Of a stretch of 32,000 nucleotides of DNA, positions 25,787 to 32,000 are shown in pieces. The position numbers were made by a program, and so were the translations under genes. This stretch comes from Promethearchaeota archaeon (lineage in GTDB: Archaea; Asgardarchaeota; Lokiarchaeia; Sigyniarchaeales; Promethearchaeaceae). Within the stretch, counting starts at the first letter, position 1. Each line of letters begins with the position of its first letter. The stretch is from NCBI GenBank assembly GCA_016933055.1, contig JAFGBS010000028.1, forward strand, positions 120,001 to 152,000. The letters are read 5' to 3'. The notes below the pieces were generated by a model. The model ran no database searches. It was not told where the DNA came from and saw only the letters and a list, made by a program, of their open reading frames with translations.

Positions 25787-27142
25787 TTAAGCTTTTTGGA
25801 ATAAATCCACTTCCTTCCTCTTCGCATCGAATTTTGCACTTTTTTTGCCTGAGATCAATCCATTAAAAGTAATTACAAACCATTCTAGTGATCCTACATA
25901 GTGGATTTTTTCCCACCCGATATTTAGTAATCCCCATAATAATGCAAGAATAGCGCCAATAATGATAACTCCGCCGAGACTGTCCCTCCACCCGGTGATA
26001 AATGGTATCTGATCCAATAATAATCCCAATGCAATCGCAGTCATTCCTTCAAAAATGTATATACTCATTGAGAGATTACCCATTCTGGCAAAAAACCGAG
26101 CGTTTCTCATGTTTATTTTCTGCCACTTTGGCGTAGCAAAATCAAAAAGTGCTAACCCCATAGAAAAGAATAAAAAACATACCCCTAATTGAGCTAAGTG
26201 ACGCCAATAGTCGTCCATAATTGCTATTGGAATAGTATCGTATATAAGACCTGGATGAATTCCTCCTCTTCGAATAATACCAAACAATCCCAGAGTAGTA
26301 AAAATAACTAACATAGATAATGTATAAGCATAAATTTTTCTTCGGGATTCATTTCTCGCAAGTGCTATTCCCACAATAGCTCCATAACATGCAAATGCGC
26401 TAACAGGAAAGATAGGAAAATTATCATAGGCTAGTAATGCAAGAGGCCATGCTAATATAGGATGCCCATTTATTAGTAATGATTCTACAAACGGTGCCAG
26501 AAAAATGCGAATTGGTATTGCAAGTAATAAAATGATGGTACCTGTTATAAATAATACCATATATACACTATTCCAATTTCTACGACCTCTTTTAATGAAT
26601 CGTGAGGAAGCAATACTAAGAATTTGTGGAACCAAGTAAGAATTAATCCCCAAAATCGTTAATGACGAACTACTAACTAACCAAAAATTTGGGATTGTTT
26701 TAGTATTGTATAAAATGGTGTAGCTATAAATTTCAGAAAGATCAGGCCATGTTCCTGTTCGTAATGCAAAATATAACATTCCCGAGTCCGCACTGAAAAA
26801 TACTCGAAAAAGAAAATTCAATGAAATCAAGAGCACGCATGCGATGAGACCCGAGAATACTAATTGTCTCGGTTTGTTTACTTCCGTATCTACGCGTTTA
26901 TAAAACATAAACGCGTTTACCGCACCCAAAATTGCTGAATAAATGCCCCCTATAGTTACAAAAAATATAAGAAAAGACATAAATGGGTCTGTTGCTTCAG
27001 TTCCAGATTGTTCTGTTTCTGCTCCGGTCCATAAATGCAATCCCGTATGAAGAATAATGAGGAATAACATAGCAAAACCCCTGTAAACATCCATTAATTT
27101 TATCCTTGCAAAATTCGCCATCGTGTTCTTCACCACTATCAT
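25787..27142 (-). CDS. Multi-pass membrane protein, DUF1624/HGSNAT-like acyltransferase fold
   Basis: N-terminal MDVYRGFAM...LH, many TM helices, C-terminal GNLSMSIY and GSLEW. Confidence 0.7.
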   Translation of the reverse strand: MIVVKNTMANFARIKLMDVYRGFAMLFLIILHTGLHLWTGAETEQSGTEATDPFMSFLIFFVTIGGIYSAILGAVNAFMFYKRVDTEVNKPRQLVFSGLIACVLLISLNFLFRVFFSADSGMLYFALRTGTWPDLSEIYSYTILYNTKTIPNFWLVSSSSLTILGINSYLVPQILSIASSRFIKRGRRNWNSVYMVLFITGTIILLLAIPIRIFLAPFVESLLINGHPILAWPLALLAYDNFPIFPVSAFACYGAIVGIALARNESRRKIYAYTLSMLVIFTTLGLFGIIRRGGIHPGLIYDTIPIAIMDDYWRHLAQLGVCFLFFSMGLALFDFATPKWQKINMRNARFFARMGNLSMSIYIFEGMTAIALGLLLDQIPFITGWRDSLGGVIIIGAILALLWGLLNIGWEKIHYVGSLEWFVITFNGLISGKKSAKFDAKRKEVDLFQKA

Positions 27143-27209
27143 TCTGTGTTACTCTAAGATAATTAAAAGCTTACTATGATCGAAAAAAATCCAAATAAAG
27201 AAAAAAAAA

Positions 27210-28433
27210 TTAGATTTTTATTATAATATTGAATTTATCAAGTGGCCATACAATTGCCCACATTAAAATCGTCGGAATGATTCCAACAAGCAACATATCC
27301 AATAAGGGACCATACCATGTAGGCAAACCAATTAAATTGAAAGATATGAGTATCATGTCCTTATAGATCACTTCATTAATGATCATCGATAGAAGGAAGA
27401 CTAGTAACATATTTTTACCTAATGGTGTCAACAAGGGAATCTTAAAATTACGTTGCCCCATTGCATAGAATGTAAATATCATCAATGAACTAAAACCAAT
27501 AGCCATTGTTGCTAAAGACATGTTCACTTTATGGTGATCTGCCCAATTGATAAACCATGACAAATAGGATAATACCATAAAACCTATCGCTAAAGGTAAA
27601 ACTTGTTTTTTCCAACCTTCTTCTTTTATCGTTCCATCTGGTTTGAAAATCCACCCTGCTACCCCAGCAGCTATGATTCCAATCTCTATATGACCGACAA
27701 GGGGCAGTAATGTGTCCAATAGATTACTTGTGAATAGAGGTGCTAACCCTCCATGAGTTGATGTGACATACCAAAGTGTTTCAGTTATTATCATTAATCC
27801 AAATCCAGTCCAGAATCGGATATTGCCATTCTGCATCAAGATGGAGATCAATGCCGCAAATAAGCCTGCCCAGGCAATATTAGCTAGAGTTCCTGTTAAA
27901 AACGCTTTTTCGAAATCAAAGGGAGGACCATCTAGGAAAAATTCAATTAGCACATGTAGTATGGATAAAGCAAAAATTCCTGCTACTCGAATACCCGTAT
28001 GTGTCCACACACGCCATTTTTCTTCACTCTTTTGTTTTCTCTTCATTACTGCAAATGCTTGCATAAATCCTACTAAAAAGATGAAGATTTGTTGCCCAAT
28101 ATCGACTAACGTGATGATCTTAGGAATCCCATCCCCAAAATTAATATATTTATATCCATGATTTACCATTGGGGGTAAGATCGGTAAGATACCTCCGCTA
28201 GGATTACCGCTAAAAGCATATGCAAACGTTTGTACAATAAAAAGCACGATCACAATTCCTCTAAATTGGTCCAACCATTCAAAACGAATTCGTTCCCGAC
28301 GTTTTGGTTTCTCTTTGCCTGGTTTTTTGGGTGGTTTTTCTTTCTCAACAATTATAGGAGGTTTCTGATCTTCCTCTACTTCCAAGGGTGCTCCTACCAT
28401 CATACTTTCACTCATAATATAACACCACATCAC
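27210..28433 (-). CDS. Multi-pass membrane protein, HGSNAT-like (start probably MSESMM or later)
   Basis: RFEWLDQFRG, ITLVD....IFIFLVG, PLGKNMLLVF, terminal LDKFNIIIKI. Confidence 0.7.
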   Translation of the reverse strand: MMWCYIMSESMMVGAPLEVEEDQKPPIIVEKEKPPKKPGKEKPKRRERIRFEWLDQFRGIVIVLFIVQTFAYAFSGNPSGGILPILPPMVNHGYKYINFGDGIPKIITLVDIGQQIFIFLVGFMQAFAVMKRKQKSEEKWRVWTHTGIRVAGIFALSILHVLIEFFLDGPPFDFEKAFLTGTLANIAWAGLFAALISILMQNGNIRFWTGFGLMIITETLWYVTSTHGGLAPLFTSNLLDTLLPLVGHIEIGIIAAGVAGWIFKPDGTIKEEGWKKQVLPLAIGFMVLSYLSWFINWADHHKVNMSLATMAIGFSSLMIFTFYAMGQRNFKIPLLTPLGKNMLLVFLLSMIINEVIYKDMILISFNLIGLPTWYGPLLDMLLVGIIPTILMWAIVWPLDKFNIIIKI

Positions 28434-28565
28434 TGTTAGTTGTTTATACTTTTAAACCTAGATCTCTCCTTATAATGCATAACTTAGAATATCTGGATGC
28501 TTCTGATTTCCCGAGAATTGATAATTTTTATTATATTCATACAACAGTAACATCATAGGCGTTCT

Positions 28566-29789
28566 ATGGAAAATTCAACTTTCGATAAAAAAGATATTTC
28601 GGAAAATGTTCAAAAATTATCTTCCAAGGAGTCTAGATATTGGCAAATTGATTTTCTGAAAGTTTTTGCCATGTTACTTGTTATTATGGACCATTCTACC
28701 TCGTATGATGACTTATTGGAGCTTGCTTCTCCATATTGGCAACGAATTGCAATCCCATTGTTTCTAATCATACTAGGCTTCAATTGGTCCAAATCCATGG
28801 AACAACACAAAAACAAATCGTTACGCTATATTTATTCATGGAATGTGTATTTCAAGAAGAAAATGCTACGATTTATTTTACCATTCGCAATAATTTACCT
28901 TCTTTCCATAATTTTGCTCATAATTCAAAAAACTATTCCAACTATACCCCAAATGTATATAAGTTACTATGCGGATCCTATGCTGAAGATTTTTTTATTT
29001 TTGCCCGTATGGGGTCCTGGTAATTGGTTCATCCCCCTATTATTCTTAACTATTCTAATATTTCCATTGATGCATAAGGCCTTTATGAAACAACCTGTAA
29101 TGGCCCTTGTAGGTTGTTTTTTAGTCGAGTTACTATATTATCTGATAATTTTTGTGGTGAGAATTTTTTGGCAAAATCGCGGTTATGTACCTGTTGGTTC
29201 ATGGAATTATTACAATACGTTGACAATTATACGATGTACACCATTTAGAGCAATGTCGGCCATCGGTTTAGGTATTTGGTTATCCATAGATCATAACTGG
29301 TTTTCCCGTCGAAATATTGTGATTTGGGTACTCGGTGGATTATCAGCAGTGTATTTATTTTTCTATACCTTTGCTGGATATCGATCGTCAATATTTATTG
29401 GAGACTATAGTATGCTACATTTTCCGTGGAGTGCATTATTAGTCATGCTTGCTTTGAATTTATTCCCCAAAGGTCCTAAAGGAAAACAAAATAGATTTAT
29501 CCGTTTACTCAGTAATTCCACTTATCATATTCTCATGGTGCAAATATTCTATTTTTCAATTATCTATAATTATTTATTACCACTTTTTGGAGATAATCCA
29601 ATATGGGCTCATGTTGGGGGTGAAAATTACAAGTTACATTATCTTTGGTATTATCCCGTGAATGTAATTTTCACTTTTAGTGTGGGTGGGTTATGGTACA
29701 ACTTGGAAAAAAAATACATATGGCAACGAATGACACGGATTGATAAAAATCGCTTGGACTATGCCAAAGCAAGGGGTTGGATTAAATAG
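28566..29789 (+). CDS. Acyltransferase family 3 (OafA-like) membrane protein
   Basis: IDFLKVFAMLLVIMDH, PLFLIILG, WFIPLL, STYHILMVQ. Confidence 0.8.
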   Translation: MENSTFDKKDISENVQKLSSKESRYWQIDFLKVFAMLLVIMDHSTSYDDLLELASPYWQRIAIPLFLIILGFNWSKSMEQHKNKSLRYIYSWNVYFKKKMLRFILPFAIIYLLSIILLIIQKTIPTIPQMYISYYADPMLKIFLFLPVWGPGNWFIPLLFLTILIFPLMHKAFMKQPVMALVGCFLVELLYYLIIFVVRIFWQNRGYVPVGSWNYYNTLTIIRCTPFRAMSAIGLGIWLSIDHNWFSRRNIVIWVLGGLSAVYLFFYTFAGYRSSIFIGDYSMLHFPWSALLVMLALNLFPKGPKGKQNRFIRLLSNSTYHILMVQIFYFSIIYNYLLPLFGDNPIWAHVGGENYKLHYLWYYPVNVIFTFSVGGLWYNLEKKYIWQRMTRIDKNRLDYAKARGWIK

Positions 29790-29945
29790 ATATACACGAT
29801 GCGGTGTCTTTTAATATAATTTTTAGTAAAAGTTAAACGGTTTTAAAACCTTTTTTTCTTAAAGCGATTTGAAAAAATCCCTTTTCATTAGAACAAGAGG
29901 GATTAAATTAACTTGATAATACTAAAAAATGTGAGGTAATCTTGA

Positions 29946-30194
29946 ATGGACACGAATGAGACCGATAAAATTGATAAAACATTAGATTGCATTGGACTAT
30001 TTTGCCCTCAACCCTTATTAGAAACCAGAACAGCTTTGAACCAATTGGAAATAAATCAAATTTTGGAAGTTTATGCAGATGATCCCGCAGCAGAATCGGA
30101 TATCAAGAGTCTCGTAAAGCGAACTGATAATGAACTAGTGAAATTTGAAGACAATAATGGTGAATTTAGATTCCTCATTAGAAAATTAAAATAA
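29946..30194 (+). CDS. tusA: TusA/SirA-family sulfur carrier
   Basis: LDCIGLFCPQP (Cys codon 30003-30005), LEVYADDP, DIKSL, FRFLIRK. Confidence 0.9.
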   Translation: MDTNETDKIDKTLDCIGLFCPQPLLETRTALNQLEINQILEVYADDPAAESDIKSLVKRTDNELVKFEDNNGEFRFLIRKLK

Positions 30195-30205
30195 ATGTGA
30201 AATAT

Positions 30206-30568
30206 ATGCCAGAAGATAAATTTCTATTATATGTTCAAACCTCCGACGACCCCGAGAGACAATACTCTCCCTTAGTACTGGCACAAACTGCCAAAGCTAT
30301 GGATATCGAAGCGAAAGTATACTATCTTGGTCAAGGATTACGGATACTAAAAGGAGACACCGCAAAAAAAATCCAGATGGGAAATTTCCCTAGTATATAT
30401 GACATGCAACAAAAATGCATGGAAATGGGAATTGAAATCTATGTTTGTGAAGCAAGCAAACAAATGCTTGGTTGGGATAAAATAGAATTAGCCCCCGGTT
30501 TAAAAATTGTTGGTGCTGGAACCTTAAATGATTTAGTACTAGATGCAGCAGGTACCATGTGGTTTTAG
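30206..30568 (+). CDS. DsrE/DsrF-family protein; probable ATG at 30206, ORF track start 30197
   Basis: PLVLAQTAKAMD..VYYLGQGL, GIEIYVCEAS (Cys codon 30446-30448), IVGAGTL. Confidence 0.85.
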   Translation: MPEDKFLLYVQTSDDPERQYSPLVLAQTAKAMDIEAKVYYLGQGLRILKGDTAKKIQMGNFPSIYDMQQKCMEMGIEIYVCEASKQMLGWDKIELAPGLKIVGAGTLNDLVLDAAGTMWF

Positions 30569-30615
30569 ATGAATGAAAATGAATTTTACTAATAGGAAAT
30601 AGGGTGCTAATAACA

Positions 30616-31806
30616 ATGACGACACAACAACCGTTTGCGTGCGAGGATGTGTATCTAGACTATCAAAGTGCAAAGCCTGTCGATCCTCGGGTAATTTCCA
30701 AAATGTTACCATATTTCAACGAACTGTTCGGAAATCCCTCCTCGTTGCATGGTGTCGGGGATGTAGCAACTAATATATTAGACGAAAACCGAGAATTGAT
30801 TGCAAATTTTATCAACGCGAAACCAGAAGAAATTATATTCACATCCGGAGCAACTGAAGCAAATAATCTCGCTTTAATTGGTTATGCAATGAGAAACCAA
30901 AAGAAAGGAAAACATATTATCATTTCTGAAGTGGAACATATCTCCATCCACAATATCGCAAAATATCTCACACGGCAGGGATTTGAAATCTCTAAATTGC
31001 CAGTAGATATTTACGGGCAAGTTATTATTCATAAACTAAAATCCCGCATTCGAAAGGATACAATTTTAATCTCTGTTGGATATGCTTCTAATGAAATCGG
31101 GACATTACAACCCATTCGAGAGATTGCAAAAATTGCCCGTGAGCGAGATATTGCATTCCATGTTGATGCGGTTGCCGCTGAAGGGCTAATTCCCATTGAT
31201 GTACAAAAGGATGATATTGATCTTCTTACTTTATCCTCAAATGATATTTACGGTCCTAGAGGAGTCGGTGCTTTGTATCTCCGAAAAGGATACCGGGTAA
31301 ATCCGATATTAATCGGTGGTGGGCAAGAACATGGACTACGTTCTGGTTCTGAGAATATTCCCGGAATTGTAGGTTTTGCTGAAGCTGCTCGTATTATGAT
31401 GGAAGAGATGAAGGAGGAGACCAATAGATTGGAATCCTATCGAAATAAACTTCTTGAAACTATCCCCAATCTAATTCCAAAGGCATATATTAACGGTCAT
31501 CCCACTGAGAGATTACCTAACAATGCTCATTTTCGCTTTGAAGCGATTGAAGGGGAAAGCATTTTACTATCACTTAAAGACGAAGGTATCGCTATCGCTA
31601 CTGGTTCTGCTTGTTCATCTAAAACCTTAGAACCTTCCCATACTCTTATTGCTACTGGTTTATTGCATGAAGAAGCTCATGGGAGTTTGCAAATTACGCT
31701 TGGTAGGTTTACTAAGGAGGAAGATGTTGATAAATTGATTAAGATACTACCTGGGGTCGTCTCACGTTTACGTAAATTATCACCTTTATGGAAAGAGGAA
31801 CAATAA
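30616..31806 (+). CDS. iscS: IscS/NifS-like protein lacking the PLP Schiff-base lysine; probable ATG at 30616
   Basis: YLDYQS, FGNPSSLH, FTSGATEANN, NEIGTLQP, FHVDAV, SSNDIYGPRG (Asp at 31243-31245 in place of Lys), RSGSENIP, GSACSS (Cys at 31612-31614). Confidence 0.93.
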   Translation: MTTQQPFACEDVYLDYQSAKPVDPRVISKMLPYFNELFGNPSSLHGVGDVATNILDENRELIANFINAKPEEIIFTSGATEANNLALIGYAMRNQKKGKHIIISEVEHISIHNIAKYLTRQGFEISKLPVDIYGQVIIHKLKSRIRKDTILISVGYASNEIGTLQPIREIAKIARERDIAFHVDAVAAEGLIPIDVQKDDIDLLTLSSNDIYGPRGVGALYLRKGYRVNPILIGGGQEHGLRSGSENIPGIVGFAEAARIMMEEMKEETNRLESYRNKLLETIPNLIPKAYINGHPTERLPNNAHFRFEAIEGESILLSLKDEGIAIATGSACSSKTLEPSHTLIATGLLHEEAHGSLQITLGRFTKEEDVDKLIKILPGVVSRLRKLSPLWKEEQ

Positions 31807-31810
31807 AAAA

Positions 31811-32000
31811 ATGAAGTCAACAAACTATTCTGAAAAAGTTATGGACCACTTTCGGCATCCCCGAAACCAAGGGCACCTCATTGGTTTTGATGTGAGTTGG
31901 GGGAGGGTCGGAAATCCCGTCTGTGGGGATCTAATGGATATTTATATTCGGGTTCATGATGATATAATTATAGATATCAAGTTTGAAACCTTTGGTTGTG
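31811..32000 (+). CDS. iscU: IscU/NifU-N Fe-S scaffold, runs off the right edge of the window (not in the ORF track)
   Basis: Manual translation: MKSTNYSEKVMDHFRHPRNQG...VGNPVCGDLMDIYIRV...IDIKFETFGC. Confidence 0.92.
   Translation, partial: MKSTNYSEKVMDHFRHPRNQGHLIGFDVSWGRVGNPVCGDLMDIYIRVHDDIIIDIKFETFGC

Follow-up and report, generated by a model that had tools for sequence, protein, structure and literature searches.

The closest described relatives of the locus reported here are the IscS2-IscU pair of Archaeoglobus fulgidus (4EB5, 4EB7 and 4HVK; D199K variant 4R5F) and the isc1 locus of Methanosarcina acetivorans. The locus itself is a four-gene cassette of tusA, a dsrE-like gene, an iscS homologue whose product has no pyridoxal 5'-phosphate (PLP)-binding lysine (hereafter Lys-less IscS), and iscU, found at the end of a 32,000-nucleotide stretch of contig JAFGBS010000028.1 from a Promethearchaeota archaeon (the window). 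A. fulgidus IscS2 shares with the cassette protein a type I fold, the motif SSNDIYGP, a GSACSSKT mobile loop and an IscU gene directly downstream. In the work of Marinoni 2012, Yamanaka 2013 and Pagnier 2015, as cited in PMC7585200, it was reported to be without desulfurase activity and to provide a Cys ligand to the cluster on IscU; the Lys-to-Asp IscS protein itself is already known from this 2012-2015 work. The A. fulgidus IscS2 locus differs from that of the window in having no tusA, a truncated dsrE, and a short IscU (156 residues), whereas the IscU of the window has an extra C-terminal domain similar to thioredoxin reductase (TrxR).

The M. acetivorans isc1 locus encodes the same four families side by side (MA0807, IscU1; MA0808, IscS1; MA0809, "DrsE superfamily"; MA0810, "SirA-like"), and its IscS1 also lacks the PLP lysine (PMC7585200). 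IscU1 is 24.2 kDa, so its extension differs from that of the 276-residue IscU of the window. MA0809 and MA0810 are named in the legend of Fig. S1 of that paper, while its main text describes them as "of unknown function" and proposes no relay.

Three better characterized systems share some of these parts. The IscS-TusA-TusBCD-TusE relay of Escherichia coli likewise combines three kinds of protein that carry persulfide on a Cys, namely an IscS-family member, a TusA, and a DsrE-family member; however, its IscS is an active PLP-dependent donor, TusBCD is a heterohexamer encoded by three genes, and TusE/DsrC is needed. The genome of the window, which is 91% complete, does not fit such a relay, with one DsrE-family match and no DsrC match. 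The DsrE3A and TusA proteins of sulfur-oxidizing archaea and sHdr systems (SSO1125, 3MC3) have an aligned Cys and are similarly paired, but they act in dissimilatory sulfur oxidation beside shdr/dsr genes, whereas here the neighbors are iscS and iscU and the hosts are anaerobes. Finally, the MIS system (MisS-MisU), reportedly defined by Garcia et al. in 2022, is like the cassette in pairing an IscS-like with an IscU-like protein. It does so without chaperones, ferredoxin, or A-type carriers (PMC13066941), but consists only of an active cysteine desulfurase and a scaffold, whereas the cassette has a Lys-less IscS and includes tusA and dsrE in the conserved unit. In recent reviews MIS has two components, and TusA is mentioned solely as an acceptor for E. 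coli IscS (PMC13066941, PMC12192291).

The origin of the sulfur in the cluster of the inactive A. fulgidus IscS2 has stayed unsettled, and reviews still regard it as unclear how sulfur reaches the minimal archaeal systems. In the limited full-text literature consulted we found no interpretation of the link between tusA/dsrE and Lys-less IscS, and the gene order is drawn only in the M. acetivorans supplementary figure. To this record we add Lys-bearing control loci, an account of co-occurring desulfurases, a five-position signature of the PLP pocket, a second Lys-less clade, and a corrected picture of the A. fulgidus loci.

The four-gene cassette

All four genes lie on the forward strand: tusA (29946-30194; 82 residues; Pfam TusA, E 1.7e-24), the dsrE-like gene (30197-30568; 120-123 residues, depending on whether translation starts at GTG or at the ATG of 30206; Pfam DsrE, E 1.8e-13), the Lys-less iscS (30604-31806, with GTG or the ATG of 30616 as start; Pfam Aminotran_5, E 6.5e-76), and the 5' part of iscU (ATG at 31811, running to 32000, with about 640 nucleotides more beyond the window end). 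The original prediction had placed tusA and dsrE, with their Cys in CPQP and YVCEAS, directly upstream of iscS on the same strand and iscU 4 bp after it, and this is how the sequence reads. Successive gaps are 2, 35 (or 47), and 4 nucleotides, and no terminator-like site was found in a scan of the cassette sequence. The gene 3' of iscU is convergent, and the operon therefore ends at iscU. We conclude that tusA, the DsrE3-like gene, the Lys-less iscS, and iscU constitute a single four-gene operon. A metatranscriptome run of the source study yielded no contig on this stretch, which says nothing on expression.

Targeted loss of the PLP site in IscS

The Lys-less IscS reads LSSNDIYGP where a canonical IscS has SxHK, with Asn encoded at 31240-31242 and Asp by GAT at 31243-31245, while its mobile loop, GSACSS, is intact (Cys codon 31612-31614). 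Both the Asp codon and the retained loop Cys had been noted in the original prediction, as had the likeness to the Lys-to-Asp IscS of A. fulgidus: the nearest solved structure is 4EB5_A (A. fulgidus IscS2), which aligns with residues 16-397 at E 2.7e-142 and has an identical SSNDIYGP. The Pfam Aminotran_5 and 4EB5_A matches place the protein in the type I (IscS/NifS) class V aminotransferase fold. It is not a canonical IscS or NifS, as it has SSND for SxHK, Ala at the equivalent of Q183, and Asn at the equivalent of H205, and it scores under the NCBIfam equivalog cut-offs for both NifS (TIGR03402; 473.7 vs 530.75) and IscS (TIGR02006; 409 vs 643.2).

An assembly error at the Asp codon, which the original prediction had wanted checked, is ruled out: a contig from an independent hot-spring metagenome spans 31028-31261 with zero differences, and all 120 best database homologues have S[SGA]ND at the lysine position. 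DNA near-identical to window positions 29800-32000, in pieces without differences, is present in two 2017 hot-spring metagenomes and in a 2021 sediment metagenome, which is probably the source.

In a comparison of 103 Lys-less with 7 distinct Lys-bearing sequences, consistent differences occur, given the small Lys-bearing sample, at five positions only, all of them in the PLP pocket (Lys-less/Lys-bearing: A83/G, S114/A, A191/Q, N213/H, and D214/K, with A191/Q corresponding to E. coli Q183). About 70 other positions, among them the loop Cys, are invariants common to both groups, and mean column identity in the Lys-less family is 75% (23 archaeal and bacterial sequences). The alignments indicate that the PLP site has been lost in a targeted way, with strong purifying selection on all other parts of the protein.

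The carrier proteins

TusA has its active-site residue, Cys20, in the motif FCPQP (codon TGC, 30003-30005). With a Pfam score of 85.9 bits against a cut-off of 28.6, it has both the fold and the CPxP Cys that define the TusA family, although it misses the NCBIfam equivalog cut-off for E. coli TusA (61.4 vs 78 bits). The Cys and the CPxP motif are invariant among 33 cassette orthologues.

The DsrE-like protein carries its Cys in YVCEAS (codon 30446-30448) and scores 51.1 bits against the Pfam DsrE cut-off of 22.7, with a DrsE_2 match at E 4.7e-14. Among solved structures it is closest to 3MC3 (E 1.1e-11), the DsrE3A-type trimer SSO1125, in which YVCVQS aligns with YVCEAS, so that both the DsrE fold and the active-site Cys position of DsrE3-type carriers are present. 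This Cys is invariant in 36 orthologues, which have a mean column identity of 77%. The protein is a predicted sulfur carrier of DsrE3-like type.

IscU and its C-terminal domain

The full IscU has 276 residues (open reading frame L002 2663-3493, extending past the window end). Residues 1-125 form an IscU domain (Pfam NifU_N, E 6e-46) containing all cluster ligands; C38, D40, C63, H106, and C107 are invariant in 31 orthologues, as in a cluster scaffold. A linker of about 25 residues (131-155), predicted to be disordered, leads to a C-terminal domain (about 157-273) resembling a degenerate NADPH domain of the TrxR/ferredoxin-NADP reductase type; 2ZBW matches residues 160-273 at E 6.7e-9. In an AlphaFold2 model of IscU (pLDDT, the predicted local distance difference test score, 86.9), Foldseek matched the N-terminal domain to 4EB5_C (root-mean-square deviation (rmsd) 1.5 A) and the C-terminal domain to 2ZBW, 3F8D, and 3LZW (rmsd 1.5-1.8 A over about 120 residues). 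The 2ZBW match (E 9e-12; rmsd 1.8 A over 122 residues) identifies a Rossmann-type NADPH-domain fold.

This fold is common to the TrxR-like ferredoxin-NADP reductases (Thermus thermophilus 2ZBW; Bacillus subtilis YumC, 3LZW), but the C-terminal domain of IscU lacks their FAD domain and nucleotide motifs: FNGDKS stands in place of GxGxxG/A and TDEP in place of HRR, and the consensus reads VLDTGDES. Neither the sequence of this domain nor its orthologue alignment has a CxxC or any conserved Cys. We rejected an NAD(P)H-binding or redox-active role, as the fold is present but the nucleotide motifs and CxxC have been lost; a structural or docking module is a likelier reading of the domain than a reductase. 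Dependence of the domain on DsrE was also ruled out, as the long IscU is kept at loci without dsrE. Cassettes of the clade at 59% identity or above typically encode the long form and those further away a short IscU; at two loci (L204 and L205) the IscU open reading frame has about 460 residues.

The linkage is conserved and specific to Lys-less IscS

A scan of 185,579 species genomes returned at least 562 relatives of the Lys-less IscS, of which the best 80 (59-72% identity, at loci from named genomes) were analyzed. The lysine is missing in every one (76 SSND, 3 SAND, and 1 SSNA). A tusA gene lies directly upstream on the same strand in 78 of these 80 loci, the remaining two of which end at contig edges; dsrE stands between tusA and iscS in 65, and iscU, nearly always the long form, directly follows iscS in 78. 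No fifth gene family was conserved in more than 15 of the 80 loci in the neighbor survey, and those that recur are lineage-specific, which excludes a rhodanese, ferredoxin, reductase, or thiolation enzyme as a further member; as no other gene is conserved around the cassette, the four genes are therefore the functional unit.

Hosts among the best 80 include archaea (Thor-, Hel-, Hermod-, and Promethearchaeota, Bathyarchaeota, Methanobacteriota/Halobacteriota, and Thermoplasmata) and bacteria (Deltaproteobacteria/Syntrophaceae, Actinomycetota, WOR-3, Aminicenantes, Zixibacteria, Stahlbacteria, and Clostridia). In the Asgard phylum, 336 of 400 sampled genomes have an IscS-like match and about 200 have an orthologue of the Lys-less IscS (61-69% identity, E 1e-150 or below, from a hand count of the per-genome table); all 29 Asgard loci among those listed carry the same cassette. 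With the cassette in about half of the sampled Asgard genomes, it therefore bears on the building of iron-sulfur (Fe-S) clusters in the archaeal relatives of eukaryotes. In a sample of 301 genomes from another archaeal phylum, 28 of the 30 loci listed are Lys-less at 51-68% identity, 27 of these 28 have tusA and/or dsrE, and IscU is short (130-170 residues) at the more divergent ones.

The two remaining matches of that phylum, of similar similarity, are Lys-bearing (SSHK) and have iscU but neither carrier gene. None of the 18 Lys-bearing control loci, comprising 11 of IscS/NifS type (7 with adjacent IscU) and 7 of SufS type, has tusA or dsrE within 1.5-3 kb. The survey that the original prediction had called for thus gives tusA in 78 and dsrE in 65 of 80 close loci, one or both in 27 of 28 distant ones, and neither in the 18 controls, and the link of tusA/dsrE is specific to Lys-less IscS. 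With persulfide carriers beside Lys-less IscS and never beside the Lys-bearing relatives sampled, the question of the sulfur source becomes experimentally approachable.

In the tree of Lys-less IscS, bacteria and archaea are interleaved and internal branches are short; a Thermoplasmata/Methanobacteriota pair is nested in Actinomycetota (SH-aLRT 99). This pattern is compatible with occasional cross-domain transfer of the cassette. Strict anaerobes among both archaea and bacteria have conserved the cassette and in part exchanged it. The module envisaged in the original prediction for a sulfidic-habitat archaeon is not one archaeon's peculiarity, being spread over many anaerobic bacterial and archaeal phyla.

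The Archaeoglobus loci and other Lys-less variants

A. fulgidus has two relevant loci. A 382-residue open reading frame is the full-length match to 4EB5_A (838.7 bits), and at this crystallized IscS2-IscU locus the only carrier-like gene is an N-truncated dsrE-like open reading frame (L210:2476-2826), in which no ATG, GTG, or TTG precedes the Met that gives 94 residues. A frame overlapping the 5' end of this remnant appears from its motifs to resemble a DtxR-family metal repressor. As the locus has no adjacent intact carriers, that IscS2-IscU pair therefore apparently works without carriers of its own alongside. The complete order tusA-dsrE(VCDRS)-iscS(SSND)-iscU is found in A. fulgidus at a paralogous locus about 164 kb into the chromosome.

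Among the 150 best representatives of 50%-identity clusters, the lysine is missing in 18, which fall into two main clades plus singletons. Their replacement residues are varied (ND, SA, NS, GP, SD, QG, QQ, QS, NQ, HT, and others). With SSSA and with SANS, all four cassette genes are present. The operon of the SGSD variant (L214:1957-5739) encodes a PF04060 "FeS" protein, the Lys-less IscS, a short IscU, and a second atypical Aminotran_5 protein, with no tusA or dsrE. In the second Lys-less clade (L215:3001-4933 among its loci), a TusA and/or DsrE-family gene is adjacent in three of five members: SAQG has the order iscS-dsrE2-tusA, SAHT has iscS-tusA, and SAQS has a divergent DsrE-family gene, while SAQQ and AGNQ have neither carrier.

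Desulfurases in the host genomes

The genome of the window is that of an Asgard archaeon (3.76 Mb). The cassette holds its only IscU and its only DsrE-family gene; a second TusA is unlinked to the cassette, and one tandem-rhodanese protein is encoded. As the original prediction had suggested looking for, a second, canonical desulfurase and SufBC genes are both present. The former is a Lys-bearing enzyme on another contig (SAHK, with a GSAC loop), the only one of NifS/IscS type in the genome, and the latter is a sufC-sufB pair without SufD, an SMS-like arrangement. The Lys-bearing gene lies between those for a 4Fe-4S dicluster protein and a full-length thioredoxin reductase (region L001:334-3808) and has no IscU partner.

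A Lys-bearing desulfurase occurs in all 11 cassette genomes checked, the other ten being 5 Asgard genomes, a WOR-3, a Bathyarchaeota, 2 methanogen-related metagenome-assembled genomes, and an Aminicenans. These enzymes are of NifS/IscS type (SxHK and GSAC) or SufS type (SxHK and RSGxHC). The idea that cassette genomes lack any real desulfurase is thereby ruled out; the cassette therefore adds to a desulfurase rather than substituting for it, and cysteine stays a possible ultimate source of sulfur. The claim in the original prediction that sulfur enters from sources other than cysteine is to that extent unsupported.

A proposed role and its alternatives

We consider it somewhat better than an even prospect that the loop Cys of the Lys-less IscS and/or IscU receive sulfane sulfur from TusA and the DsrE-like protein, which would thereby replace the lost desulfurase step. 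Without its lysine, the IscS would not hold PLP as an internal aldimine and, by analogy with A. fulgidus IscS2, would make no persulfide from cysteine, while probably retaining its fold, its dimer, its IscU partner, and the mobile-loop Cys. In the A. fulgidus crystal, according to the account in PMC7585200, the [2Fe-2S] cluster on IscU has this loop Cys as its fourth ligand. Sulfane sulfur would be borne by both TusA and the DsrE-like protein, on the conserved Cys of each, and handed to the loop Cys and/or to IscU, where the cluster would then be assembled. The gene anatomy, the homologies, the invariant carrier Cys residues, and the linkage to Lys-less IscS are observed; mutual binding, the direction of transfer, and the source of the sulfur are what we infer here. 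As to the source, a Lys-bearing desulfurase elsewhere in the genome (compare E. coli IscS to TusA) or a rhodanese, on the one hand, and inorganic sulfane sulfur (polysulfide or thiosulfate), on the other, are about equally likely.

Several observations weigh against this proposal. Contact of TusA and DsrE with the Lys-less IscS or IscU would be a prediction from gene order and sequence rather than from experiment or structure. The crystallized A. fulgidus pair has no adjacent tusA and only the dsrE remnant, about 18% of cassettes are without dsrE, and the SGSD variant has an IscU but no adjacent carrier gene. In E. coli, sulfur flows in the opposite direction, from IscS to TusA and on to the DsrE-like TusBCD. 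No adjacent IscU was found in any of the five members of the second Lys-less clade; as this clade stands beside DsrE2/TusA without IscU, the conserved partnership may therefore be that of Lys-less IscS with TusA, not Fe-S assembly as such. In M. acetivorans, IscS1 and IscU1 were not consistently detected in proteomes (PMC7585200). A complex prediction for the Lys-less IscS with TusA and DsrE as partner scored 0.14 against a mark of 0.32, which is evidence neither way.

A narrower version of the proposed relay, and a special case of it, would dispense with cysteine: inorganic sulfane sulfur (polysulfide, thiosulfate, or oxidized sulfide) would pass through DsrE/TusA to the loop Cys of the Lys-less IscS and then to IscU, with no desulfurase involved. 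It is possible but on the doubtful side. In its favor, loss is confined to the PLP pocket of an otherwise conserved protein, the cassette occurs in anaerobes from sediments, bogs, and hot springs, and the genome encodes the tandem-rhodanese protein. The DsrE of the window is nearest to the DsrE3A type, of which the archaeal form is an established thiosulfonate carrier (PMC11094781), and Methanococcus and SMS systems take their Fe-S sulfur from sulfide rather than from cysteine (PMC7585200, PMC12192291). However, a Lys-bearing desulfurase accompanies the cassette in all 11 genomes examined, and no polysulfide- or thiosulfate-handling gene is conserved beside it in the 80 loci. If the cysteine-independent route were nonetheless true, the "dead" desulfurase shared by A. 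fulgidus, Methanosarcina, and hundreds of anaerobes would be a persulfide adaptor, and the missing sulfur donor of archaeal minimal ISC systems would be identified.

The main rival to delivery toward IscU is an outward relay of E. coli type, in which sulfur would move from the Lys-less IscS to TusA, to DsrE, and on to thiolation targets (tRNA, molybdopterin, or thiamine); another enzyme would then load IscS, which would act as a persulfide hub with IscU as just one client. We regard this as unlikely. It has the precedent of E. coli IscS, TusA, and TusBCD (PMC2854127, PMC11302665), and it is favored by the second Lys-less clade, in which DsrE2/TusA occur and IscU is not adjacent. It is weakened by the lack of acceptor genes and by the near-constant IscU of the main clade: no thiolation enzyme is conserved beside the cassette in the 80 loci, IscU is adjacent in 78 of them, TusE/DsrC was not found in the 91% complete genome, and the single DsrE-family gene leaves no TusBCD-like trio. 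Moreover, as the Lys-less IscS would make no persulfide, an upstream donor is required in any case.

Inward delivery by the carriers also has to be set against a looser coupling, in which the Lys-less IscS and IscU would hold or transfer a cluster made with free sulfide, and TusA and DsrE would be co-regulated for another role, such as reactive-sulfur buffering. IscU can be chemically reconstituted with sulfide and iron in vitro (PMC7585200), detoxification of reactive sulfur has been proposed for DsrE4-type proteins (PMC11094781), and the crystallized A. fulgidus pair has no tusA beside it. We nonetheless find this reading improbable: the cassette keeps its gene order and close spacing from phylum to phylum and in both domains and has apparently moved as a unit, and the link is specific to Lys-less IscS, being absent from Lys-bearing IscS-IscU pairs. 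A sequencing error at the Asp codon, or a dead, decaying gene, can be dismissed, given an intact frame, the identical independent metagenome, the same motif in 120 of 120 homologues, and the high column identity of the family.

Flanking sequence

The cassette is preceded by a leader of 156 nucleotides on the forward strand (29790-29945), which is intergenic and was read from the sequence. It contains a T7 run at 29851-29857, 3' of an upstream acyltransferase gene, and a ribosome-binding-like GAGGT at 29933-29937, 8 nucleotides 5' of the tusA ATG. Further upstream, positions 25787-29789 encode three multi-pass membrane proteins of 450 (reverse strand), 406 (reverse strand), and 407 residues (forward strand). 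The 450- and 406-residue proteins have zero Pfam family matches, and the 407-residue protein matches Pfam Acyl_transf_3 (E 1.1e-18). Beyond the window, the gene convergent to iscU (L002:3520-4089, reverse strand) encodes a 2-oxoacid dehydrogenase E2 catalytic domain on its own (Pfam E 6.8e-15).

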